IMG/VR virus record: IMGVR_UViG_3300045241_000115
Span: 9,960-73,959 of that record
Reading direction: 5' to 3' (one strand)
From: a virus
Length of the DNA: 64,000 bases
Shown: one piece after another, positions 1,032 through 61,351 of the stretch
How the letters are laid out: each line of letters opens with the position of its first letter
How positions within the stretch are numbered: the first letter of the stretch is position 1
The notes under the pieces: generated by a model
Databases searched by the model: none
What the model was told of the DNA's origin: nothing
The model's input: the letters and a program-made list of their open reading frames with translations, nothing else
Program-made: the position numbers and the translations under genes

Positions 1032-1360
1032 CCGAACTTGTCGACCGGCAGTTCATGCTGTCGGCGATCCTCGCGCGCGATCCCGACGCGACAAGACTCC
1101 ATCTGCGCCATCTGCAGGTGTTGGAACACGTCTGCTCCGGCAACGGCGTGCTGACATCGGCAGTGATTGCCGCCGAGCTTGACATCAGCCCGGCGCAAAC
1201 GTCGCGGCTGCTCGCCAAGCTGGAGAGCCACGAAATGATCACGCGCTCCGATCCACGTTATCGCCCGATGACGTGGGGGCCGACGGTGCGCGGCCGCGCG
1301 CTGATCATACGCCTGCGCACCTACGTCTCTGCGTGCCTGTCAACCGACCAAGCCGCCTAA
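1028..1360 (+). CDS. MarR-like winged-helix DNA-binding protein
   Basis: LTSAVIAAELDISPAQTSRLLAKLESHEMITR...T..GR; ATG overlaps the ERF stop (ATGA). Confidence 0.7.
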   Translation: MTELVDRQFMLSAILARDPDATRLHLRHLQVLEHVCSGNGVLTSAVIAAELDISPAQTSRLLAKLESHEMITRSDPRYRPMTWGPTVRGRALIIRLRTYVSACLSTDQAA

Positions 1361-1376
1361 ACAGAAAGGAACAACC

Positions 1377-9716: not shown

Positions 9717-10421
9717 TTATGTCGTCAGGACGACGATGCCCCAGGCCGCTTCATCAAATCCGCCCAGCGGACCGCCAGATGATGCAGGCACATCGAATGC
9801 AAAGATCGGCTGCGTCGAAAGCGTCGTCTCGATGAAGTTCGTCCGCACGCCGGAGGGTTTGATGGGAAAGTCCTGCTCCAACACAGCGAGAAGCAGCGAG
9901 CTGATCAGCGCGGACGGGATCAATATGTCCATCGCCATAAGCCCCGTCGGCGTGTCGCCGAGATCCTGGATCACTATGCCAGGAAACACCGCGTCGAGCT
10001 GATCGGCGATCTGCGACAGCGTGCCATCCCACTGGTTCGCAATCGCCTGCAGCTTGAGCACCGCGCGATATGTCTCGTCGTCCAGCGCGACAAGGCCATC
10101 TGTCGGATCATACCGGCCCAGCCACACGCCCTGGTCGAAGCCCGTGCGCGGGCTGCTGCCGGGTGTGCCATCGAGACTGTCATCGAAGCTGAAGAAGACG
10201 CCCTTGATCGGCTGTTTGACGTAGCGCGTGCGGCCGATCCACTGGCCGACAACATCGAGCTGAACGCCGACCGCGGTGTCCAGATCGAAGTCCGCCGTCA
10301 GCTTTGCCAGCATGTCCTGGGCGTCGACCAACGGCTGGATCAGCGCCGCGACGGTGTTCATGAACCGCGGCCGCGTCGAATGCCATGACGTGATCAGGCC
10401 GAGGTATTCTGCTAATGTCAT
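9717..10421 (-). CDS. baseplate wedge protein (DUF2612-like)
   Basis: FDLDTAVGVQLDVVGQWIG, LDDETYR, NQWDGT. Confidence 0.85.
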   Translation of the reverse strand: MTLAEYLGLITSWHSTRPRFMNTVAALIQPLVDAQDMLAKLTADFDLDTAVGVQLDVVGQWIGRTRYVKQPIKGVFFSFDDSLDGTPGSSPRTGFDQGVWLGRYDPTDGLVALDDETYRAVLKLQAIANQWDGTLSQIADQLDAVFPGIVIQDLGDTPTGLMAMDILIPSALISSLLLAVLEQDFPIKPSGVRTNFIETTLSTQPIFAFDVPASSGGPLGGFDEAAWGIVVLTT

Positions 10422-50100: not shown

Positions 50101-50792
50101 GCGGTGGCCTCATGGCGTGAGGATGCGACAAAAGACTGTTTCGCTAGTTGAAACAGTTGCGACAATAACTGGCCGAATATTGCTGCGGGTGCCGTCTGAT
50201 CGTGTCGGAAGCCATTGATCTGACAAGGAAATAATACAGATTGTTCCGTTGCGGCAATCTGCGACTATCGCATTGCTATCGATGATCTTTGACAAATGAA
50301 TACGGATCGCACGCCGCCCCACACGGGGCGCGGGGGTCGCTCGGGGGCCAAGCGCACGTTGCGCGGGGTCGAACCCATCCACGAGCCGCTTACGCGATGT
50401 GCACGTCTACCGCGATCCGATGATCTGTTCCTGATCATTTCCCGTCTTTGACAAATAAATCCGCCACCCTGAGCACGAAACGACATCCGTGGTCGCGCAG
50501 CCTATCGGCGCAATCGGATGCACGTCATGCGAGGGGAGCGGGTTTCATAGGCAACCCAATTCACCGCATTCCCGCGCTTCGGCGCTGCCTGTAAGGCGAT
50601 GCGGGGTGATGTTCGTGGATGTTTAGTTGCATCTCGGTGCAACCCTCTGCCCGTGGCTATCGGGGTGAGGGCGGTTACCTGCCTGCAAGGCGTGCGACGA
50701 AAGCTGACGCGAACAGCACCGGAGTGGTTTGGTGTGTTCTTTTCTTTCTGTTGATTGGCATCGTGTGAAGGCTACGGCCTTTGCGCGATGCC

Positions 50793-50841
50793 GGTCCGGG
50801 ATGTGAGCCATCCCGCTGAACGAGGCCATGAGGCCGAAACC
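50793..50841 (+). ncRNA. type III hammerhead ribozyme with variant core (CUGAACGA)
   Basis: GGUC^ CGGGAUG-UGAGC-CAUCCCG CUGAACGA GGCC-AUGA-GGCC GAAACC; predicted cut after 50796. Confidence 0.7.
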
Positions 50842-50860
50842 CAACAGAAAGGAACATCAT

Positions 50861-51124
50861 ATGACAATGGATCAATTTGTTCTCGGCGCGCGCGTGCGTC
50901 TCGTTCGCCGCGCCGGCGGAAACTACCCGGGTGCGAGTTTCTGCATCGAACCCGGCCCGATCGGCACGGTGATCAAATCGCCCGAGGATTTCTGCGTGGA
51001 CGAGTTCGCCCCGAATGTCGGGGTGCGGTTTGATGACCGCGTTGCCGATCTCGATATGTGGGACAACATCGTGATCGTGGGCGACGACTTCGACGCCACG
51101 GCCGATCATTTCGAGACACTCTGA
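50861..51124 (+). CDS. hypothetical early protein
   Basis: Conserved leader and ATG. Confidence 0.7.
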   Translation: MTMDQFVLGARVRLVRRAGGNYPGASFCIEPGPIGTVIKSPEDFCVDEFAPNVGVRFDDRVADLDMWDNIVIVGDDFDATADHFETL

Positions 51125-51193
51125 GACGAAACACGGCGCGTTGCGTCGTGTCCGTCGGCGCCTGCCCCTCCCGACGCTGATGAGTCAGGGGCA
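51125..51193 (+). ncRNA. type II hammerhead ribozyme with pseudoknot
   Basis: GAC GAAA, stem III ACACGGCGC/GCGUCGUGU, C^51152, stem I CGUCGG/CCGACG, CUGAUGA GUC; UGCCCCU/AGGGGCA pseudoknot. Confidence 0.92.
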
Positions 51194-51212
51194 AACAGAA
51201 AGGAACAACCCT

Positions 51213-51383
51213 ATGCGCAAGCAAATCGAGACGATGAAGACGAAGCTGCAGACGATGCTCGCCCGCGCCGAAGAGAAGGCCGACAGCGAGAACGAGACGG
51301 TCGGCGACAAGTACGCCGCCGTCATGGACGGTCTGCAAACCGCGCTCGACGGCCTGGACGAAGCGTTGCTCGCATTTGAATGA
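51213..51383 (+). CDS. small helical early protein
   Basis: Conserved leader and ATG. Confidence 0.7.
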   Translation: MRKQIETMKTKLQTMLARAEEKADSENETVGDKYAAVMDGLQTALDGLDEALLAFE

Positions 51384-51456
51384 CGAAACGCGCGGTGGAT
51401 GAGACATCGCGCGTCTGCATGGAACCCCGCCCATCCTGCACTGATGAGTCAGGGCG
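51381..51456 (+). ncRNA. type II hammerhead ribozyme with pseudoknot
   Basis: UGAC GAAA ... GUC^51415, stem I UGCA(U)GGA/UCCUGCA, CUGAUGA GUCA; CGCCC/GGGCG pseudoknot. Confidence 0.92.
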
Positions 51457-51475
51457 AACAGAAAGGAACATCACA

Positions 51476-51778
51476 ATGCCAAAGACCACAATCATGCTCA
51501 AGGCCGACGTTGCGCAGCGCAAGGCGCGTCATACGTGCCCCCAGTACGATCAATTCAAGAAGCCATCGCGCAAGGCGTCCAGAGCGAAGATTGATCCGAC
51601 GACAACCGCCGAGGCGGATCAGGCGATCTACGAGGCCGCACTGAGTCAGGTACGCGAGGCGATGCGCCGCTTCGCCGGCCCGCATGCGTCCAAACGCCAG
51701 CTCAAAGAGATCGACGCGGCGCTGAGCGAGGCATTCGGGCAACTCGACGCCATCGCGTACGATCTTGTTTGCATGTGA
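51476..51778 (+). CDS. hypothetical early protein
   Basis: Conserved leader and ATG. Confidence 0.7.
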   Translation: MPKTTIMLKADVAQRKARHTCPQYDQFKKPSRKASRAKIDPTTTAEADQAIYEAALSQVREAMRRFAGPHASKRQLKEIDAALSEAFGQLDAIAYDLVCM

Positions 51779-51847
51779 CGAAACGCGGCGCGCGCAGCGC
51801 TGCGTCTGCACGGACCTGCCCCACCCTGCACTGATGAGTCAGGGGCA
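51776..51847 (+). ncRNA. type II hammerhead ribozyme with pseudoknot
   Basis: UGAC GAAA ... GUC^51806, stem I UGCA.GG/CC.UGCA, CUGAUGA GUCA; UGCCCC/GGGGCA pseudoknot. Confidence 0.92.
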
Positions 51848-51864
51848 ACAGAAAGGAACAACCC

Positions 51865-52059
51865 ATGCCTAAGTTTCGTATCTCATACGAGATCGAATGC
51901 GAGGCCGCCAACGCTGCCGAAGCGTTGGAGGGCTTTTTGTCGTCCGGCCACGTTCACGAGGAAGAGTGGACGGTGACGCGGGTTCATCCGCGGCCATCGT
52001 CTGTCATCGTGACGGCGCGCAACCCGCGCAAAATACGGCGTGACGGAGCGACGCGATGA
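51865..52059 (+). CDS. hypothetical early protein
   Basis: Conserved leader and ATG. Confidence 0.65.
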   Translation: MPKFRISYEIECEAANAAEALEGFLSSGHVHEEEWTVTRVHPRPSSVIVTARNPRKIRRDGATR

Positions 52060-52583
52060 GCGACAGCACTTCCCAGCTTGTCGCTGTTCTCGGCATGTTG
52101 GGATCGCAGTTCGACGGCGAGTGCCTGAACGCGGCCCGGATGGCCGAGAAAATGCGACGCAAGATGGACAAGACGTGGCAGCAATTGCTGACCGCCGGCG
52201 CGTCGTCTCCCAAGGACGAGCTCGGCTGGCTCGCACGCGCGTTGCGTGCCGAGAAAATGGTCAGCGATCTGACGGCGCGTATCGGCAAAATGGAGGCCGA
52301 ACTTGCCGAATTGCGCAAGGCTCGTCCGAGCGCGTCCGCGTCCTCGACCGGCCCACGTCCTCGCAGTCCCGGCTACAAGTACTCACTCAGCGCCGAGACC
52401 GAGCAGATCTTGATCGACAAGATGTTGCTGATCGAACGATCGACCAACGAGATCTATTACATCACCAAATGGCCGCGCGCGCATTTGCGCGTCGTCCTCG
52501 AGCGCATCGCCCATCGCCGCAAACTCGAGCTTCATGTGCGGCGACGGTTCGGCAGCACGTTCTATCGTTTCACGCGTGTCTAA
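52056..52583 (+). CDS. coiled-coil early protein
   Basis: LGMLGS.FDGE.LNAA motif; ATGA overlap. Confidence 0.65.
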   Translation: MSDSTSQLVAVLGMLGSQFDGECLNAARMAEKMRRKMDKTWQQLLTAGASSPKDELGWLARALRAEKMVSDLTARIGKMEAELAELRKARPSASASSTGPRPRSPGYKYSLSAETEQILIDKMLLIERSTNEIYYITKWPRAHLRVVLERIAHRRKLELHVRRRFGSTFYRFTRV

Positions 52584-52694
52584 CCCGTACGGATGCAGCA
52601 TCGTTCGATGCTGTATTCGCCTGGGTTAGCGGGGACTCATTCCGAGTCCCGCCCAGGCATCGCAATCATGCGATGGATACAGAAAGGAACATCC

Positions 52695-53039
52695 ATGCCT
52701 ACCATGAAGACGACATCTGAGCCCCGCGGTCAGACGGCCATCATCTGCAAGGTGCTGCAGCACAAGGACGGTTATACCGCCCAAGAGCTGCTCGCCGAGA
52801 CGGGTGGCACGACGCCGCACAACTCCTATTCGCTCCAGCTCATCGCCGATCGCTTCGGCTATGACTTCGTGTCCCACAAGGGCAGCGAGTACGAGGACGG
52901 GCTGATGCGGTATCGCTTCGTCCGCAAGGCGGCCCGCAAGGCCGTGAGCACCCGTCGCGCCGGCAAGGCGAAGGCGGTTAAGGCGGCGGCCGCGTCGACC
53001 AAGCGGCCTGCGAAGAAGACCGCGAAGTCCAGGGCGTAA
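52695..53039 (+). CDS. HTH-like protein with Lys/Ala-rich tail
   Basis: GYTAQELL..TG; histone-like C-terminus. Confidence 0.65.
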   Translation: MPTMKTTSEPRGQTAIICKVLQHKDGYTAQELLAETGGTTPHNSYSLQLIADRFGYDFVSHKGSEYEDGLMRYRFVRKAARKAVSTRRAGKAKAVKAAAASTKRPAKKTAKSRA

Positions 53040-53171
53040 CACGAGACCGAGCGCGGCGGGCGATCATATCGTCCGCCGCGAACGGACCTGACCCGTACGG
53101 ATGCAGCATCAAACGATGCTGCATTCGCCTGGGCCAGTGATGGTACAGGGCTAAACAGAAGGGAACACCGA

Positions 53172-54173
53172 ATGGCGAGAGAGTTTCTCACGTTGAAGCA
53201 ATTGCGCGAGAGGACCTGGAAGAACCAAGACGAGGCTATTCTGGATCTGAAACGCGCGGGGCTGAAGCCGGTCGGCACCGACTATGTGCTGGGCGAGCAT
53301 ACGCCCGGCAGCAAGGTCTGGCAGTTGCTGGACCGCACGGACGCCGATGGTTCGCAAGAGCCGCCGACGGCCAAGCCGGCGAAGGCCGCGAAGGCTCCCA
53401 AGAAGACGGCCAAGTCCGAACATCCGGGTGACGCCGACATGAAAGCCAAGGCCGCGAAGGCGACCGGCTATGACGTTCACTTCCGAGTCAGTCCGACCAA
53501 GAAGTTGAACGAGCAGGCCGACACGTTGGAGGCGGCCCGTGCGATCGCCGCGCGCATGAATGCCGAACACGGCAAGAATGGGCGACGTGCGATGATCTAC
53601 GCGCGACAGGCGAAGGGTCCGTCCATCCCGATCACAGGCGACGATCCGCCTGTGACGAAGGTGGCGGAGAAGGTGAAGGGCGCGAAGGCGAAGCCCGCCG
53701 ATGCGCCGGAGCCGGAGCCTGCGCCGGAGCCTGCGAAGCCTGCCGAGCCGGCCAACGACATGACGCCGTTGCCGGCGGCCAACGGGCCGTACAACTTCCG
53801 TCTCGATCAGCCGCCGGCGCAGCATTCGCTGTTGCCGACGGCGCTCGAATGGTCGCGCAAGACCGGCTTCGTCGTGGCGATCATCGACAAGGCCGGCAAC
53901 GTCGTGCGCAAGATCGACGGCCGGCTGGGCGGCAAACGTCCTACGCGCACGGCGACGCGCGTGGCAACGCGCACCCCCCGCGCACCGCAGGGCGAGGGCA
54001 AGATGGCCACCGCCACGCGGCTGCTGATGCGTCCCGAGGGCGCATCGGCTGACGAGATCAGCAAGGCGACCGGATGGCCGACCGGGCAACGTCATATCAA
54101 CAAATTAGCGAAGCTCGGCGGGCTGAAGATCGTGAACGTCCGCGACAAACATTGGCGGCTCGTCAAAGCCTGA
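53172..54173 (+). CDS. multi-domain protein with C-terminal DUF3489-like HTH
   Basis: LL.RPEGAS..EI..ATGW. Confidence 0.65.
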   Translation: MAREFLTLKQLRERTWKNQDEAILDLKRAGLKPVGTDYVLGEHTPGSKVWQLLDRTDADGSQEPPTAKPAKAAKAPKKTAKSEHPGDADMKAKAAKATGYDVHFRVSPTKKLNEQADTLEAARAIAARMNAEHGKNGRRAMIYARQAKGPSIPITGDDPPVTKVAEKVKGAKAKPADAPEPEPAPEPAKPAEPANDMTPLPAANGPYNFRLDQPPAQHSLLPTALEWSRKTGFVVAIIDKAGNVVRKIDGRLGGKRPTRTATRVATRTPRAPQGEGKMATATRLLMRPEGASADEISKATGWPTGQRHINKLAKLGGLKIVNVRDKHWRLVKA

Positions 54174-54245
54174 CCCGCGAGGGATGCAGCGTCGGTTGAC
54201 GCTGCATCTCCCTGGGCCAGACCAGGAAACAGAAGGGAACATCAC

Positions 54246-54437
54246 ATGCAATATCACATGCCACTCGATCCGGAATGCCCGGACGTCGCGGCCTTCACCG
54301 AGTCATTGTTCGATGACCCGATGACGACAGCGATGGGCGCGCCGGTCGATGACATCATTGAAGGCTTCGACAGACGACATCGCGCGAAGTGCGCGCGGTG
54401 TCAGGCATTCGGGGCCGCCAACGTGGAGGTGCGCTGA
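54246..54437 (+). CDS. small Cys/His (Zn-binding?) protein
   Basis: C...H...CARC. Confidence 0.6.
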   Translation: MQYHMPLDPECPDVAAFTESLFDDPMTTAMGAPVDDIIEGFDRRHRAKCARCQAFGAANVEVR

Positions 54438-54655
54438 TGAAGATCGGTCCGTGGACGGTGCATGCCTCGATCACGAGCGATCGGGTGTGCGAAGCCGTGG
54501 AGCGTCATCTGACCAGCTTGGACAACCCGGGATTTTGCCTCGCTTGCGGCGCGGATGCAGAAGGCGTTGAGCCGGACGCTGAAGGCTACGAGTGCGAAAT
54601 CTGCGAGGAGCCCGCCGTTTGGGGCGCCGACCAGCTTCTCATCTATCTCGCCTAA
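54437..54655 (+). CDS. Zn-ribbon protein
   Basis: GFCLACG....VEPDA..Y.CE.C....V.GA. Confidence 0.7.
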   Translation: MKIGPWTVHASITSDRVCEAVERHLTSLDNPGFCLACGADAEGVEPDAEGYECEICEEPAVWGADQLLIYLA

Positions 54656-54739
54656 CCCGCGACCGATGCAGCGACACGTTCTCTGCATCTGCCTGGGTTA
54701 GACAACGGGGGCCAGGCCCCGAACAGAAAGGAACATCAC

Positions 54740-55063
54740 ATGCGAAAAACTGCCATGACGCCGATCGAACGTGATCGATTGATGGTGCTGTCGCCGGGCG
54801 AATGGCCGAAGTGGCCAGTTCTACCGCTCATGCGGCGGGATGGCGATTTTCATGCCGACGACGCGGCGGGATTTCTTCTCGCCGTGGTCGATCAGTCGAG
54901 ACCGGTCGTTTATCTCGGCACGATCTATCGGACCGACGACATCGCCACAGAAATCAAACAGGAAACCGGCAAAAGAGCCAATTGGTCCCAGATCGTGGCC
55001 AGACTCCCAAAGCGGGAGTTCGACACGTTGGATGCCATGCTCTCCGCATATCGCATCGACTGA
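54740..55063 (+). CDS. hypothetical early protein
   Basis: Conserved leader; WP.WP.LP..R. Confidence 0.7.
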   Translation: MRKTAMTPIERDRLMVLSPGEWPKWPVLPLMRRDGDFHADDAAGFLLAVVDQSRPVVYLGTIYRTDDIATEIKQETGKRANWSQIVARLPKREFDTLDAMLSAYRID

Positions 55064-55149
55064 CCCGCGACGGAAGCAGCATCACTGATGCTGCTTCTGC
55101 CTGGGTCAGTTTTACCGCGCCACCAGGGGCGCAACAGAAAGGAACAACC

Positions 55150-55422
55150 ATGACTACACGGATGACCATCGGTGCCGTGCTGAAGGCGAAAGCCGGCAAG
55201 CACGATCCCGAACCGGTCTATTGGATCAGCGAGCCTCCCGCTGTCTGCGAGCTTTGCGGACAGAAGATCAAGGAAACGTTCGCTGATGCCCGGACGGTTC
55301 AAGGGCCTTGGGGCTCCTTGGATCTGAAATGCCTGCGCATCCACGGTGTGGGTGTCGGCAAGGGCAAGGGCCAGGTCTATCGTCGTCAGGACGATGGGCG
55401 CTGGCTGAAGGTCGAGGGCTGA
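55150..55422 (+). CDS. Zn-finger-like early protein
   Basis: CELC...F.DART..GPW....C...G.G.G.G.GQ.Y. Confidence 0.7.
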   Translation: MTTRMTIGAVLKAKAGKHDPEPVYWISEPPAVCELCGQKIKETFADARTVQGPWGSLDLKCLRIHGVGVGKGKGQVYRRQDDGRWLKVEG

Positions 55423-55423
55423 C

Positions 55424-55699
55424 ATGGCCGAATTGCGCATGAGTCCCGACAAGTACGAGATGGTCCGTGTCGTTGGAGACTGGATACGTGAAAAGGCGGA
55501 CGTCGAATATGCCACCTTCGACGGCCTCGACCGGTTGACGATCCCGGACCTCAAGCTGCTCTGCCTCGCTATCGGGTGCAAACTCGACCTGCACGAGGTG
55601 GCGCGGATGCGTGACTATTACCGGCGGCAATGGGAGTACCGCAACGGCAAGAAGGCAACGGTCGTCATCGATCTGAAGGCGATCACCGACGACACCTGA
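55424..55699 (+). CDS. hypothetical early protein
   Basis: Tightly packed behind the upstream gene. Confidence 0.6.
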   Translation: MAELRMSPDKYEMVRVVGDWIREKADVEYATFDGLDRLTIPDLKLLCLAIGCKLDLHEVARMRDYYRRQWEYRNGKKATVVIDLKAITDDT

Positions 55700-55777
55700 C
55701 CCGTGTGGATGCAGCGAGTTAGCTCGCTGCATTCATCTGGGCCAGACCCCAGAGCAACAGAAAGGAACACATGACAC

Positions 55778-56791
55778 ATGAGACAACCCGAATGGGTCCA
55801 ACGACCCGACGGCCGAGGTACGCGCCTCGAGCGTGAGGCAACTCGCGTCGAGGAATGGAGCCCGACCGTCACGCAGATGCGCGATGTCGTCCAGGCAGGG
55901 CGCGTCTGCGGACTCGACTTCTCGGAGATGCTGGACCTCATGCCGGAAGGCCACAACTATCTGGTCGGTCAGGCAGAGGTCGAGCGGGCCAGCGAGATAG
56001 CATTGGAGGCCGTCACCACCGGGCGTGTGATCGACTTCGGCTTCCTGCCGAATGCGGTCATCCGCTTCGGCGGCGAGCGCGGTGGGCCGCTCTGGAACAG
56101 GAGCGCGCTCGCCATGCCGTTCACCGACCCGTGGATCATCTATCACCGCTGGGAGGGACAGACCGGCATGTATCTGGTCAATCCCTCGTCGGACGGCAGG
56201 TCCTTTCAGATCGTGGAATTCCAACCAGCAAAGATCGATGGCGAGAACATGCTGTTGATCGGCGACCGCGGCGAATTCCACAAAACGCCCGATGGTTCCG
56301 ATCTGCCGGACAAGCGGTACAACGCCTGGATGATGCCGTCGGCGGCACGATTTGTCTCCGATGGGATTGCGCGCAATCGGATCAACAACGACGCGTCCTC
56401 GCCCGAGGGCGCGGCCGCCGGCAACGTCGGCGATCCGGTCATGATCGCGTTGCTGATCCTGAATACGCGCAACATCGACCGCGAGACGGTGAGCGCGCCG
56501 CCGAAACTGCAGGCGGCGCGTCGCAAGTCGGGCAAACCGCCGATCCCGAACTACGATCGGGTGAACTCGGCGCCTTACGTGACGGCCATCAACATCTCCG
56601 GTCCGCGTCGCGGACGCAGCGAGGACCTGGGCGGTACGCACCGTTCCCCAGTGCCTCACATCCGTCTCGGCCATCCCCGGACTTACCAGACGGGGCGCAG
56701 CATTTTCATCCGCGATACGCTGGTGGGAGTGCCGGACGAGCAGCGCGCGGCGTTCAAGAGCCAGCGCACTCATTACGAAGTGAAGCCCTAA
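55778..56791 (+). CDS. conserved phage protein with C-terminal SP..H.R.GH.R motif
   Basis: RRK.GKPP...GTH.SP.PH.R.GH.R. Confidence 0.7.
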   Translation: MRQPEWVQRPDGRGTRLEREATRVEEWSPTVTQMRDVVQAGRVCGLDFSEMLDLMPEGHNYLVGQAEVERASEIALEAVTTGRVIDFGFLPNAVIRFGGERGGPLWNRSALAMPFTDPWIIYHRWEGQTGMYLVNPSSDGRSFQIVEFQPAKIDGENMLLIGDRGEFHKTPDGSDLPDKRYNAWMMPSAARFVSDGIARNRINNDASSPEGAAAGNVGDPVMIALLILNTRNIDRETVSAPPKLQAARRKSGKPPIPNYDRVNSAPYVTAINISGPRRGRSEDLGGTHRSPVPHIRLGHPRTYQTGRSIFIRDTLVGVPDEQRAAFKSQRTHYEVKP

Positions 56792-56862
56792 CCGAAGCAC
56801 CGCGCGGTTCGCCGCCCGGTGTTTCGGCCAGCGCTTCGCTGGGCAACAGAAAGGAACACCAA

Positions 56863-57234
56863 ATGCCGAAAACCGACGCGACAACAGAGCGGGACGCGAT
56901 GGTGCAAGCCCTGCATGACAGCATGGCCTTGCGCAGTCCCGCCGAGTTCGTCGAAACGATGGAGTTACCCCACGATCTGTATGTCGCCATTGCCACCGGC
57001 CGTCCCGAGCTTATCACGCTCGCGACGGCACGGGACATGACGGCGGCGGAAGTCGCCGAGCTCTACGAGGTGATCGCGGTCCTGATCCGCACAAACTACG
57101 CGCTGCAGGTTCACGCTCGCGAGCTTGCGAAGATGGCGAGCGATTTCGGTCGTCAGATGCACGGTGCGGCGCGTCAGATCGCGGCGATCGAGCAGTTCGC
57201 CGACTTCCGGAAGTCAGACAATGACGACCGGTGA
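56863..57234 (+). CDS. hypothetical early protein
   Basis: Conserved leader and ATG. Confidence 0.65.
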   Translation: MPKTDATTERDAMVQALHDSMALRSPAEFVETMELPHDLYVAIATGRPELITLATARDMTAAEVAELYEVIAVLIRTNYALQVHARELAKMASDFGRQMHGAARQIAAIEQFADFRKSDNDDR

Positions 57235-57700
57235 GCTGCGCGCCAGTCTGCGCACGACGTCCGAGGGCTTTCGTCGCCTGGGGTCTTCCCCTGGCGGTTG
57301 GCTGCTCGCGGAACTCGTGCTGCAAGTCGGCGTCGACTATACCGCGCGGCCATTGCCGCGACGCTACATGCGCCGTGCGCCGAAGCAATGTTTTGCCAAT
57401 GCCGCCGCCCTGGTGCGACGCACGCGCGGATTGACTTACGTGGAAGGCTTCGTCCGCACGGCGCGCATCCCGTTTCCCGTGCACCATGCGTGGGCGGTCA
57501 ACACGGACGGCGAGGTCTACGATAACACGCTCGGCGATCCTGAGACCTGCGCCTATGTCGGGGTGCCGATCTCGCGGCACGATTATGCGGCGCAGACCAG
57601 TCCCGACAGCGCCAGCGTATTCCTCAATCACATCGGCATCCTGCGCGTGGACTACATCGTCTCGCGCTGTCCCGCCTTGCGGGAGATGATGCCTGCCTGA
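57221..57700 (+). CDS. transglutaminase/papain-like Cys-His-Asp protein
   Basis: KQCFANA...YVEG....HAW.....YD.T. Confidence 0.6.
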   Translation: MTTGELRASLRTTSEGFRRLGSSPGGWLLAELVLQVGVDYTARPLPRRYMRRAPKQCFANAAALVRRTRGLTYVEGFVRTARIPFPVHHAWAVNTDGEVYDNTLGDPETCAYVGVPISRHDYAAQTSPDSASVFLNHIGILRVDYIVSRCPALREMMPA

Positions 57701-57781
57701 TCAAGATGGAAGCACCGCGCCGCCCCTGGCGGTCCGGTGTTTCCACCCCGATCAGGGGACAACCAACAGAAAGGAACACCG

Positions 57782-58186
57782 ATGAACAGATACGTGGCGT
57801 TCTGCGCCATTTCAGTTCTTGCTGCGTGCACGATGGCACCGCCGCAGCAAAAATCTACAATCGCCGTCGACCGGTACGACGGCTCACCATGTTGGCCCAA
57901 CGACCAGCCGGATGCTGGACGGCCGCTGGAGCCGGGCGAATCGCAACTGCTGCACTTGTGCGGCTCGAACCCACGCCAGCAGGCGATCATGGACGCCGAG
58001 TATCACAAGGGCATGGCGGAGTCGGCGGCTTATACGCGTCAATGGCAGGCGCAGCATCCCGATGCTCGATCCTATGTCGGCATCAGCACAAGCGGGCGAC
58101 CGCTCGACTGCGTCGGATGGACCGAGGGAGGCGTATGGCAGTCTTCGTGCATGAGCCATCCCGGAGCCTGGCCGGGAGTTCGATGA
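57782..58186 (+). CDS. putative lipoprotein
   Basis: MNRYVAFCAISVLAAC lipobox. Confidence 0.6.
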   Translation: MNRYVAFCAISVLAACTMAPPQQKSTIAVDRYDGSPCWPNDQPDAGRPLEPGESQLLHLCGSNPRQQAIMDAEYHKGMAESAAYTRQWQAQHPDARSYVGISTSGRPLDCVGWTEGGVWQSSCMSHPGAWPGVR

Positions 58187-58449
58187 TGGACAAGACGAAG
58201 ACGCCGCCGCGCGGTGCGTTCGATTACCTGCTGCGCGACGTGGACAAGACGATCTGGCGCGATGCCGACCTGGGCGACGCGCCACCTGCGCCACCTGAAC
58301 GGGGTGGCGGCGGTCCGCGCGTACGCGTGGAGATCGAGATCGTGCAGCGCCCGCCCGCGCCTCGGCGTGAGTGGGCGATCAACAAAGTGCTGTTCTGGGT
58401 CGTCGCGATCATGCTGATCGCTGGCCTGCTGGGCAGTCTGCACGCCTGA
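58183..58449 (+). CDS. protein with C-terminal TM
   Basis: VLFWVVAIMLIAGLLG; ATGA overlap. Confidence 0.55.
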   Translation: MMDKTKTPPRGAFDYLLRDVDKTIWRDADLGDAPPAPPERGGGGPRVRVEIEIVQRPPAPRREWAINKVLFWVVAIMLIAGLLGSLHA

Positions 58450-58530
58450 CTCGCGAGGGATGCAGCGATACGCTCGCTGCATCTCCCTGGGCCAGACACG
58501 GAACCAGGGCAACAGAAAGGACGACACCAA

Positions 58531-59070
58531 ATGATGCACCGAGAAAGACTTGATCGGCAGATCGCAGTGCTGCGCGAGGTCGCGGCATCCGAGCGCGTAT
58601 TCGACATGCGCGCTTGGATAGAAAAGCCGCGCTCTCATGAAGGCGCTTGCGGCACGTCCGCTTGCGCGTTCGGCTACGGCGCGCTCGATCCGCAACTGCG
58701 GGCCGAGGGGCTGCGTATGGCGGTCGGCTTCACCAAGGAGGGCAACGACGAGAAGACCTGTGTCGATGTCGCCTCGAAAGCGGAATACAACGCGCTGGTG
58801 ATGACGCTGACGCTGGACGAGCTCAGCACGCTTTCCGCCTATCCGGAGTTCGGTGGGTTGTCAGGCTTCGAGGCGGCGGTGGAATTCTTCGGCATCACCG
58901 AGGACTCGGCGAGCTATCTGTTCGATCCCGACTTCTACCCCGATCGCTACGACATCACGCCCGAGGACGTGATCAAGCGCATTGAGAGTGTGATCGAGTT
59001 CGACGGCAGGATACCGCGCTCCTACGTCCACAACGAACAAGAGCCGGAGGACGACGAAGAGAATTCCTGA
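58531..59070 (+). CDS. hypothetical early protein (CGTSAC motif)
   Basis: FDM..W...CGTSACA.G...FFGI....YLF.P..Y. Confidence 0.7.
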   Translation: MMHRERLDRQIAVLREVAASERVFDMRAWIEKPRSHEGACGTSACAFGYGALDPQLRAEGLRMAVGFTKEGNDEKTCVDVASKAEYNALVMTLTLDELSTLSAYPEFGGLSGFEAAVEFFGITEDSASYLFDPDFYPDRYDITPEDVIKRIESVIEFDGRIPRSYVHNEQEPEDDEENS

Positions 59071-59150
59071 TCGAAGGGGCGCCGCATCCCACTTGGGGTG
59101 CGGCTGCCCTTTCGACCAGCAATTCGCTGGGAACAGAAAGGATCAACACC

Positions 59151-59783
59151 ATGAAGAAGCCCAACCGGGCAGTCCGCGAGGGGCGTTTCGACTGGCTGAA
59201 GCAGCACCGCTTCGATGTCGAGTTCGCCAAACGCATACTGCTCACGACCGGCGAATGCCGGCCGATGTTCGTCATCGTCGGCAAGGTCCGCTCGTCGGTC
59301 ATGCCGGCGCTGTGGAACAGCGACGACGAACGCGACACGATGTATCTGCTGATGACGTTGCTGGCAGCGGCGGACAATGCGGTCGGTCTCGTGTTCATCG
59401 CCGAGGCTTGGATGCGCGGCGTGCTGCAAGTACCGGGAGAGACCACAGCGCAGACGCGCGAGCGCGCTATGCAGGTGGCGCCACGTGACGCGGAAGACCG
59501 GATCGAGGTGATCCACGTCGTGTGCTGTTACCGCGACGATGCCGGCGAGAAGCAGACGTTGTATTCGATCCTCGAGATCGAGCGCGACGCGACCGGCAAA
59601 CCGACCGGGACACGTCCCCGCAACATCGAGGGAATCTCGATGGAGTCGCGGCTGATGACGTGCCTGCCGCCCAAGGAGTTCAGCGAGGACGAATGCGAAC
59701 TGGCGCGTCGGCTGGCGATGGACACCGCCGAGCGCGCCGGCATCAAGCTGAACCTCGTGCACCCTACTGTCGGACACGCCTGA
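59151..59783 (+). CDS. hypothetical early protein
   Basis: EAWM...P....DR.EV. Confidence 0.7.
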   Translation: MKKPNRAVREGRFDWLKQHRFDVEFAKRILLTTGECRPMFVIVGKVRSSVMPALWNSDDERDTMYLLMTLLAAADNAVGLVFIAEAWMRGVLQVPGETTAQTRERAMQVAPRDAEDRIEVIHVVCCYRDDAGEKQTLYSILEIERDATGKPTGTRPRNIEGISMESRLMTCLPPKEFSEDECELARRLAMDTAERAGIKLNLVHPTVGHA

Positions 59784-59870
59784 CCCGTACCAAGGCAGCA
59801 TGAGCGATCATGCTGTCCTGGCCTGGGTCAGATCATCGCGCCACCAGGGGCGCAACAGAAAGGAACACCA

Positions 59871-60557
59871 ATGACCAAAGCATATCTGATTGACTCGGCC
59901 GCGCGGGAAGTCCGTGAGGTCGAGCATCATCAGAACCAGAAGCCGACGCTGCAGGACCATCTCGGCGGCTACATCGAGGTCGCCTGGTCCTGGTCAACTG
60001 GCGAGGTCTGCTACGTGGACGAGGAAGGCCTGTTCAAGCCGCAGCGCGGCGGCTACTGGCTGGCAGGGCGTCCTGACCAGCCGATGGTCGGCAACGGCAT
60101 CGTCGTCGGCCGCGAGGTCGAGGACGACGCCGGCTTCCACACGGAGCCTCCGTCGTTCAGTCTCGATTTCCTGCGCGCTCAGGTCGTGTTCATCACGCGC
60201 GCGGACATCGATGCCTGGGCCAAGGGCAACCGCTCGCCCGGCGTGGCGTTCACCGGCTTCGATGCCGGCGGAGGGTTGGCGACGACCGAGGTCATAGCCA
60301 CGATGGGCGAGATTTACGGCGAGATGCCCTCGCCGTCTTATCCCGTGGTGGTCGACTCATTCGGCGCGCAGATCATCGGCGAGGCGACGACCGAACGGGA
60401 CGCGGCGTTGGTGCTGCGGACGTGGTACACGACGGAACGTCCCGGCTCTGGCGTGAAGATCGTCGGCGCCGAAGTCGGCAACGTGCTGATGGGCAAGAAT
60501 GATGCCCAGGGCACCTACGAGCAGGCGATCCAGGCGTGGATCGGGAGGGCGGCATGA
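59871..60557 (+). CDS. DUF3846-like protein
   Basis: LQ..LGGYIE.....YVDEEGL....VGN.IV.G. Confidence 0.7.
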   Translation: MTKAYLIDSAAREVREVEHHQNQKPTLQDHLGGYIEVAWSWSTGEVCYVDEEGLFKPQRGGYWLAGRPDQPMVGNGIVVGREVEDDAGFHTEPPSFSLDFLRAQVVFITRADIDAWAKGNRSPGVAFTGFDAGGGLATTEVIATMGEIYGEMPSPSYPVVVDSFGAQIIGEATTERDAALVLRTWYTTERPGSGVKIVGAEVGNVLMGKNDAQGTYEQAIQAWIGRAA

Positions 60558-61053: not shown

Positions 61054-61091
61054 AAAGGGCGCTGGCGGGAAACCGCTGGCGCCCTTTTTTT
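61054..61091 (+). terminator. intrinsic (probably bidirectional) terminator
   Basis: AAAGGGCGCTGGCGG-GAAA-CCGCTGGCGCCC-TTTTTTT between convergent operons. Confidence 0.85.
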
Positions 61092-61351
61092 GGGCCACGG
61101 GCGCGGCGATTCCCGGGCAGTCTAACTAGAACTATGGCTGATGACAGCCTGCATAGCAATACCTTGATTTTCGGCCTGCTTGCGGGAGTCGGTCCGCAGC
61201 ACTATCTTTCGCCCAGGAATGGCAGGCAAGACAGCAGGCCCCTCGTCCTATCGGGGAGTCGGTGCCCTCACCGGGTGAGTCATGTTGTTCCTTTCTGTTT
61301 GGAACGGCGGTGCTGGTCGGCGCCGCCGTTCCTGCGTACGGACGCCTGTGG

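Follow-up and report, generated by a model that had tools for sequence, protein, structure and literature searches.

The window analysed here is a stretch of 64,000 nucleotides (nt) of viral DNA (IMG/VR record IMGVR_UViG_3300045241_000115, positions 9,960 to 73,959), and the subject of this analysis is a short RNA hairpin that recurs in the spacers of one phage operon. The virus record, which originates from a soil metagenome, has 73,959 nt in total and is rated as complete by CheckV. Two Rhizobium phages have large terminases with 56% identity to that of the record, and the G+C content is approximately 63%; the host of the phage is therefore likely to be alphaproteobacterial. The operon occupies approximately 50.8–61.0 kilobases (kb) of the plus strand and encodes about 22 small proteins. 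Almost all of them are without a known family, the sole exceptions being a DUF3846 protein and a weak match to DUF3489; 20 of the approximately 22 gave no informative Pfam or PHROG match and revealed neither a nuclease nor an RNA-binding domain. The phage genome as a whole lacks an RNase III domain. We propose that this is the early operon of the phage, expressed as one long message that is divided by the hairpins. Positions refer to the window unless a contig is named (L or G followed by three digits, for relatives).

Most operon genes, namely the first gene of each spacer-bounded unit, are preceded by the extended ribosome-binding site AACAGAAAGGAACA, which occurs 17 times in the window versus 0.09 expected. 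A covariance model (R1), built from the hairpin copies and used to score the window and its relatives, recovers eight sense copies, located at 52580-52630, 53088-53138, 54170-54221, 54652-54702, 55060-55110, 55696-55746, 58446-58496, and 59780-59832. They are 51–53 nt long and score 55–72 bits on the plus strand, whereas these sites reach 26–43 bits when read on the minus strand. The upstream stop codon, or its immediate vicinity, marks the start of each copy, and the end lies just ahead of the conserved ribosome-binding site. The initial annotation, which had described a hairpin family with eight copies of 50–52 nt, is thus borne out in the positions and lengths of the copies. It had also called the family unassigned, and a search against Rfam 15 agrees: there was no match at the gathering thresholds in the whole window, and nothing relevant at expectation (E) values up to 10 in the region 50–62 kb. 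The same search that misses the hairpin copies recovers the neighbouring hammerheads. Three additional copies, numbered 7, 8, and 10 along the operon, are divergent and score 18.5, 22.1, and 10.9 bits against R1 with filters off; by eye, they share the same plan.

Relatives of the hairpin were found by pattern scans followed by R1 searches, which gave 81 unique sense-strand copies from the window, six other IMG/VR records, and about nine soil metagenome contigs of the Joint Genome Institute (JGI), typically with 5–10 copies per contig. All copies are placed between the end of a gene and a ribosome-binding site on the coding strand, and the site of the relatives reads CAGAGGACACC. Cultured phages gave no blastn match to positions 50700-58600, phages and plasmids gave no tblastn match to a 333-amino-acid operon protein, and R1 matched nothing in the two Rhizobium phages whose large terminases are nearest. 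A search with the DUF3846 protein alone found no relatives. In a set of species genomes (one per prokaryote species), a strict pattern found 83 loci, none of which exceeded about 31 bits against R1, the level of the pattern itself; the pattern catches about one-sixth of the known copies, so that this result does not show absence. A looser pattern scan of viral sequences gave at least one true locus among the matches listed.

The first fold of the hairpin, which we call state A, is an interrupted hairpin of approximately 21 base pairs (bp) that consists of an 8-bp basal stem, a small internal loop, and an upper helix. The consensus of the basal stem is C-U-R-A-C-C-Y-G paired with U-G-G-G-Y-Y-A-G. 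The internal loop has (N)GA or UA on the 5′ side opposite CC on the 3′ side, that is 2–3 + 2 nt. The upper helix is 9–29 bp long with a mode of 13 bp, reaches at least 12 bp in 74 of the 81 copies, and has a free-form tip. The pair at its foot always forms, and its lower part contains the conserved sequence G-A-W-G-C. Among 39 distinct high-scoring sequences, 93.1% of the cells of state A are paired, compared to 77.4% in shuffled sequences, and none of 500 shuffles reached the observed value. Fourteen pairs vary on both sides, and the covariation score is 0.464, compared to 0.18 for shuffled and 0.05–0.09 for slid controls. The R1 scores of the sense strand are approximately 30 bits above those of the antisense strand.

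The stop codon of the upstream gene is at motif positions 2–4 in 55 of the 81 copies, is at most 10 nt away in about 16 more, and lies 34–59 nt upstream in about nine. The basal stem tracks the identity of the stop codon (UGA/YCA, UAA/UUA, and UAG/CUA), and the covariation noted in the initial annotation, with UAA/UUA in copies 1 and 4 and UGA/UCA in copies 5 and 11, is real. The stem pairs even where it contains no stop codon, as in CGAGC/GCUCG and CGAACC/GGUUCG. The letters at the junction of the upper stem and internal loop are nearly invariant, with A on the 5′ side of the upper stem in 80 of the 81 copies and CCU on the 3′ side in 80–81, whereas the neighbouring pairs vary. The non-Watson–Crick pairs had been described as mostly G·U; G·U pairs are present, and the one adjoining the loop is conserved in 38 of the 39 sequences, but the description does not hold for basal pair 4, which is an A·C mismatch in 26 of the 39 distinct sequences. 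This mismatch (e.g., 53092 with 53135) is the majority state, although an A-U pair would equally preserve the stop codon.

The second fold, state B, is a small hairpin in which an arm starting from the first C of the invariant CCU pairs with a complement located 3–24 nt downstream. A complement of the arm is present in all 81 copies, and the stem begins at the first C of the CC in 78 of them. The mean score of the best stem is 5.37, compared to 3.85 ± 0.09 when the downstream sequence is shuffled. The helix stops at the first C, as a pairable pair outside it is present in only 16 of the 78 copies. Variant arms, which deviate from UGG, are matched by partners of their own: CCUUGUCA/UGACAAGG, CCUCAUC/GAUGAGG, and CCUGAUC/GAUCAGG each combine an arm with a complement that is found in none of the downstream sequences of 74 other copies, and there are further compensating pairs (CCUUGC/GCAAGG, UCUGGG/CCCAGA, CCUGC/GCAGG, and CCUCG/CGAGG). 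In total, 38 of the 454 state B pairs are G·U, which argues that the transcript strand is favoured. There is scarcely any variation in the first three pairs, where CCU meets AGG or GGG. A covariance model of state B (R2) gave 54 matches, all on the sense strand; it recovers the consensus arms only, in which five pairs barely vary, and its covariation count is uninformative because the model was built on consensus copies with near-constant pairs. An alignment with MAFFT could not register the downstream partner.

States A and B share 3–4 nt, and often no more than 0–1 nt separates the downstream partner from the basal 3′ strand, so that the two folds cannot coexist. An H-type pseudoknot, in which both helices would be present, was rejected for the same shared nucleotides and the connecting stretch of 0–1 nt in many copies. 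The initial annotation had proposed such a mutually exclusive second partner of the 3′ arm with covariation among the window copies. The partner is present in every copy, but a true compensatory change within the window occurs only in copy 6 (UCUGGG/CCCAGA); the covariation holds once the relatives are included. The predicted energies of the two folds are similar, with a mean gap of 0.4 kcal/mol, a spread of −8 to +11 kcal/mol, and state A favoured in 23 of 53 copies. The ribosome-binding site is covered by neither of the predicted structures.

Both folds can be followed through the individual copies of the window, all of which are on the plus strand. The module of copy 1 (52580-52691) contains the hairpin 52580-52630 (R1 61.9 bits) with the stop codon TAA within the basal stem. 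In state B, the 3′ arm 52620-52626 (CCUGGGU) pairs with 52651-52657, ahead of the ribosome-binding site at 52678-52691. Copy 2 (53088-53167; hairpin 53088-53138, 69 bits) keeps a TGA in its stem that is not the upstream stop codon, as previously noted; the actual stop, a TAA, lies 51 nt upstream. Its state B partner is weak (53128-53131 with 53146-53149), and the ribosome-binding site is at 53154-53167. The module of copy 3 (54170-54241) has its hairpin at 54170-54221 (72 bits) and its ribosome-binding site at 54228-54241. The arm 54211-54215 (CCUGG) pairs with 54222-54226 (CCAGG), and the predicted lowest-energy fold is state B; the folds are mutually exclusive because only 1 nt separates the basal 3′ strand from the partner. 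In copy 4 (54652-54735; hairpin 54652-54702, 62.1 bits), the stop codon TAA is paired with UUA, the arm 54692-54696 pairs with 54712-54716 in state B, and the ribosome-binding site is at 54722-54735.

The module of copy 5 (55060-55146) comprises the hairpin 55060-55110 (69.2 bits), with the upper stem GGAAGCAGC/GCUGCUUCU, the state B pairing of 55100-55104 with 55123-55127, and the ribosome-binding site at 55133-55146. State A is the fold of lowest predicted energy for this copy (−48.6 kcal/mol, z −7.65). Copy 6 (55696-55769; hairpin 55696-55746, 63.1 bits) has the variant arm at 55736-55741 and the compensating partner at 55748-55753, followed by the ribosome-binding site at 55756-55769. In copy 9 (58446-58524; hairpin 58446-58496, 65 bits), a C-to-U change in the basal stem retains a U·G pair, the arm 58486-58490 pairs with 58504-58508, and the ribosome-binding site is at 58511-58524. 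The last module, copy 11 (59780-59867), has its hairpin at 59780-59832 (55.1 bits), pairs the arm 59822-59826 with 59844-59848, and is followed, after its ribosome-binding site (59854-59867), by the DUF3846 gene (59871-60557). Three copies, namely 4, 5, and 11, can form an additional small, G+C-rich hairpin in state A (54705-54721, 55116-55132, and 59837-59853), the loop of which contains the CCAGG partner; the stem of this third local structure is GCGCC...GGCGC or GGGG...CCCC.

The divergent copies, also on the plus strand, resemble the others in layout, and their 5′ strand pairs with the entire loop of the state B hairpin. Copy 7 (56784-56858) has a hairpin at 56784-56838 with the stop codon TAA at 56789-56791 and the upper hairpin CCGAAGCACCG...CGGUGUUUCGG; inspection of its sequence revealed no convincing basal stem. 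A second hairpin, CCAGCG/CGCUGG at 56828-56842, starts at the CC and is followed by the ribosome-binding site at 56845-56858. Copy 8 (57697-57778; hairpin 57697-57756) pairs the 5′ strand UGAUC (57698-57702) with GAUCA (57750-57754), which forms the loop of the alternative hairpin CCCC/GGGG at 57746-57758; the ribosome-binding site is at 57765-57778. Copy 10 (59061-59145; hairpin 59067-59120) pairs GAAUU (59061-59065) with AAUUC (59121-59125), again the loop of the alternative hairpin, here CCAGC/GCUGG at 59116-59130. Its upper hairpin is at 59071-59115 and its ribosome-binding site at 59132-59145.

Hammerhead ribozymes fill the first four slots of the operon, that is the leader and the first three spacers. 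The leader contains a variant type III hammerhead at 50793-50841 (+), just ahead of the first ribosome-binding site (RF00008, 24.1 bits, E 0.21, below the gathering score), with a 1-nt insertion in its CUGANGA core (CUGAACGA). The three spacers contain type II hammerheads at 51124-51194, 51381-51458, and 51776-51848 (+), which match RF02276 with 27.1, 25, and 27.6 bits and thus fail to reach the gathering score of 37, yet have canonical CUGAUGA, GAAA, and GUC cores. In each of the three, loop I pairs with the 3′ tail, and the open stem II has only 3 bp and overlaps the upstream stop codon. Type III hammerhead-like leader elements are also present at L064:13794-13841(−), L304:5346-5399(−), and L306:666-722(+), and L304 additionally carries a type II hammerhead. 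Hairpin copies were never seen in the leader slot of these operons. In the JGI soil contig L299 (6297-11812, +), eight matches to type-P1 twister ribozymes occupy consecutive spacers, mixed with three hairpin copies. They score 37–53.5 bits (E 3.6e-9 to 2e-4), all below the Rfam gathering score of 67.2, and therefore routine Rfam annotation would miss the array.

The hairpin module is interchangeable with hammerhead and twister ribozymes at homologous genes. The DUF3846 gene is preceded by a hairpin in the window and in L065, and by a twister in L299 (E 2e-27). The gene for the 333-amino-acid protein is preceded by a hairpin in the window, L064, and L306, and by a type II hammerhead in L304 (E 5e-47). 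This says that the hairpin does the job of the ribozymes in the slot, or something that makes them unnecessary, and the sharing of the slot with hammerheads and twisters argues for a role in processing. Clusters of ribozymes that flank single genes are known from prophages, with cleavage demonstrated in vitro (Perreault et al. 2011, PMC3088659; reviewed in PMC6765202). The slot, the type of operon, and the ribosome-binding site that follows the element are alike in those clusters and here, and the expected products of the hammerheads, a 3′ hairpin on the upstream message and a 5′ hairpin on the downstream one, are mirrored by the products predicted for our module; unlike them, the hairpin fits no ribozyme model and lacks a multi-helix core. 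A genomic context of this kind led to the discovery of twister-sister, pistol, and hatchet ribozymes (PMC6765202).

We infer that the hairpin is a processing and insulation module that is cut by a protein nuclease, with host RNase III as the leading candidate, and assign a probability of about 0.5 to this reading. The nascent RNA would fold first into state A, the 5′ strand of which usually holds the upstream stop codon. An endoribonuclease, most likely host RNase III, would then cut the 3′ foot of the upper stem beside the invariant CCU, with the cut predicted to fall within 1–2 nt of the junction between the upper stem and CC; RNase III requires a two-turn helix of this type, and the internal loop would limit it to one strand. 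The upper hairpin would stay on the upstream message as a 3′ cap, just after its stop codon. The freed arm, with its unpaired CC serving as a toehold, would refold with the downstream complement into state B, a hairpin at the extreme 5′ end of the downstream message and just ahead of its ribosome-binding site. The formation of state B may also drive apart the two fragments, which would otherwise be joined by the 8-bp G+C-rich stem. The long early message would in this way be divided into gene-sized pieces with protected ends.

Host RNase III would most simply be the agent, as it fits the two-turn helix, the small internal loop, the limit on upper-stem length, and the parallel to phage T7. The 8-bp basal stem and the upper helix with its mode of 13 bp together make approximately two helical turns, and all copies lie between cistrons of a polycistronic phage transcript. 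An internal loop of 2–3 + 2 nt combined with an upper helix that almost always has at least 12 bp is less suited to a ribozyme core than to a nuclease specific for double strands. The early RNase III sites of T7 (designated R0.3, R0.5, R1, R1.1, and R1.3) are likewise repeated, sequence-related hairpins in the spacers of an early operon, placed right after stop codons; in the T7 spacers, which we folded for comparison, an upper stem of approximately 10 bp stands above an internal loop, and a stem of approximately 10–13 bp above such a loop is common to both systems. The T7 sites are cut once, 3′ of the loop, and the upstream message thereby retains a hairpin at its 3′ end. The T7 sites have no sequence similarity to the module, the internal loop of which is much smaller and the cleavage of which is deduced, and the junction A and CCU of the module are invariant across many phages. 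We know of no feature of the T7 sites like the second conserved partner of the 3′ arm, which would give the downstream message a terminal 5′ hairpin. 5′-terminal stem-loops of the ompA type stabilise bacterial messenger RNAs, and the synthetic insulator RiboJ combines a ribozyme with a hairpin before the ribosome-binding site. State B would similarly make the downstream message begin with a hairpin from its first nucleotide, immediately ahead of the ribosome-binding site, but it is one of two competing folds and would be terminal only after the proposed cut.

Several observations weigh against cutting by RNase III. A search of sequencing runs listed no RNA run with this stretch, only one soil DNA run that may be the source sample. 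RNase III is not known to need specific letters, and the near-invariance of A and CCU amid varying neighbouring pairs therefore suggests catalysis or a partner that recognises sequence. With only 2–4 basal pairs, several copies, most of them from G004, would be poor two-turn substrates. The near-equal energies of the folds mean that switching needs no cut. The five core pairs of state B scarcely vary, and its covariation comes from 7–9 copies. Finally, phages that carry ribozymes in the same slot may select for host-independent cutting.

It is possible, albeit doubtful, that the module is an uncut two-state switch or insulator, in which a terminating ribosome melts state A and lets state B form, so that translation of the next gene is coupled or insulated; in a variant of this explanation, the hairpins merely block exonucleases and leave the ribosome-binding site unstructured. 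The usual placement of the stop codon at or within 10 nt of the motif start, the covariation of the basal stem with stop-codon identity, and the similar energies of the folds would all be expected of such a switch. The flip by a terminating ribosome had been offered in the initial annotation as an alternative to cutting, and it is weakened because the stop codon is beyond the reach of the ribosome in the approximately nine copies, including copy 2 of the window, that have it 34–59 nt upstream, yet have an intact module. Moreover, neither predicted fold covers the ribosome-binding site, and an uncut switch leaves the presence of ribozymes in place of the module at homologous genes unexplained.

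This replacement is also compatible with a hairpin that is itself a ribozyme. In this unlikely alternative, state A, or a fold that uses the invariant A and CCU, would form a new and very small class that cuts itself near the junction, and state B would trap the 3′ product as a terminal hairpin and thereby block religation; the phages would in that case treat it as equivalent to hammerheads and twisters. The slot common to three ribozyme types, also at homologous genes, the nearly invariant junction letters and loop-adjacent G·U pair, the lack of an Rfam match, and the absence of an RNase III domain from the phage are in its favour. However, the loop of 2–3 + 2 nt leaves neither a junction nor a stable pseudoknot for an active site, whereas the smallest known natural cores, which are twister-sister-like, have 5 + 6 loop nt with a CA step (PMC11620745). 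A twister-sister-like ribozyme was rejected on this loop size, given (N)GA or UA opposite CC. Models of hammerhead, twister, twister-sister, pistol, hatchet, hepatitis delta virus-like, and hairpin ribozymes gave no match to any hairpin copy, either at the gathering thresholds or with E values up to 10. A minimum length of approximately 12 bp sets the upper helix apart from the freely variable peripheral stems of ribozymes.

RAGATH-type motifs, reportedly described by Weinberg et al. in 2015 and 2017, are said to be structured RNAs near genes that are associated with twisters and hammerheads. They resemble the module as conserved structured RNAs in ribozyme-rich intergenic regions of phage-like DNA, and hammerheads and twisters occur in the same operons as our hairpins. 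Neither a RAGATH nor any other Rfam model matched the hairpin copies in the window and ten related loci, and a two-state design was not found among the descriptions of RAGATH motifs outside their supplements. When RAGATH-type motifs and other structured RNAs from such regions were tested, they did not self-cleave (PMC6765202), which also speaks against a ribozyme in the present case.

The invariant A and CCU could instead be the site at which a sequence-specific protein of the phage or host, other than RNase III, binds or cuts, e.g., a Cas6-like or RNase P-type enzyme. We consider this improbable. Such a protein would account for junction letters that stay invariant next to variable flanking pairs, and for the conserved G-A-W-G-C in the lower upper stem; a CC right after a helix of at least 12 bp resembles the substrates of RNase P and Cas6-type enzymes. 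However, the module has no unpaired discriminator base ahead of the CC, unlike RNase P substrates, the 20 operon proteins without informative matches include no nuclease or RNA-binding domain, and a 210-amino-acid protein common to seven array-bearing contig groups matches no solved fold.

A DNA-level element, with the hairpins as cassette borders that promote gene shuffling in the manner of integron attC sites or phage boundary repeats, is very improbable: the alternation of hairpins and genes resembles cassette arrays (PMC5737381) and homologous genes differ in order and neighbourhood among related contigs, but G·U pairs at five stem positions become A·C mismatches on the other strand, where the score is about 30 bits lower, the module has a fixed place relative to the stop codon and the ribosome-binding site within a transcript, and the copies contain no RYYYAAC/GTTRRRY-type cores, the neighbourhood not having been searched for an integrase. 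An intrinsic terminator was also rejected as an identity of the hairpin: none of 16 terminator-like sites coincides with a copy, and no T-run comes after any of the copies, the 3′ flank of which reads CCUGGG...

Structured RNAs that occupy ribozyme slots and intercistronic processing signals of phages are known, and the module belongs to one of these kinds, but the family itself is uncatalogued. In the literature that we reached, we found no description of its conserved two-state design with a fixed junction. The reason for which self-cleaving ribozymes are present between the genes of bacterial and phage operons is still an open question (PMC6765202). A simple RNA replaces hammerheads and twisters at homologous genes, and the slot is therefore selected for a function that several unrelated RNAs can supply. 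The two-state design predicts the form of the products, with a 3′ hairpin on one side and a 5′-terminal hairpin before the ribosome-binding site on the other, and the 81 natural variants with their natural compensatory changes are a ready test set. If the module is an RNase III site, then these phages mix host-dependent and host-independent cutting within one operon; if it cuts itself, it represents a ribozyme class not described before. In both cases, synthetic operons could make use of it as a compact insulator of natural origin.

Among the operon proteins, the most widely shared array gene encodes a protein of approximately 330–350 amino acids (53172-54173 in the window), which is present in 9 of 14 contig groups, with homologues in L064, L065, L067, L138, L295, L301, L304, and L306. 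Its middle part is of low complexity and rich in Lys, Ala, and Pro, and its C-terminus is weakly DUF3489-like; it has no relative among cultured phages or plasmids. The 210-amino-acid protein has a good structure model (predicted local distance difference test score 84), for which there was no fold match in the PDB and the only neighbours were hypothetical proteins of phages.

Upstream of the long operon leader, CTTTGACAAAT(G/A)AAT occurs twice at a distance of 160 nt (50287-50302 and 50447-50462). Both copies are candidates for promoters or operator sites, although a simple sigma-70 scan did not call them. After the last gene, a G+C-rich hairpin followed by seven T (61056-61092, +), read from the sequence and not listed by a simple terminator scan, is the probable end of the operon. 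The extended ribosome-binding site AACAGAAAGGAACA also occurs before genes outside the operon, at 1360-1373 (+) ahead of a ParB-like gene at 1377 and at 61286-61299 (−), as well as in the full record, approximately 840 nt before the window begins; the phage thus uses it as a translation signal throughout the genome, and it is not part of the hairpin module.

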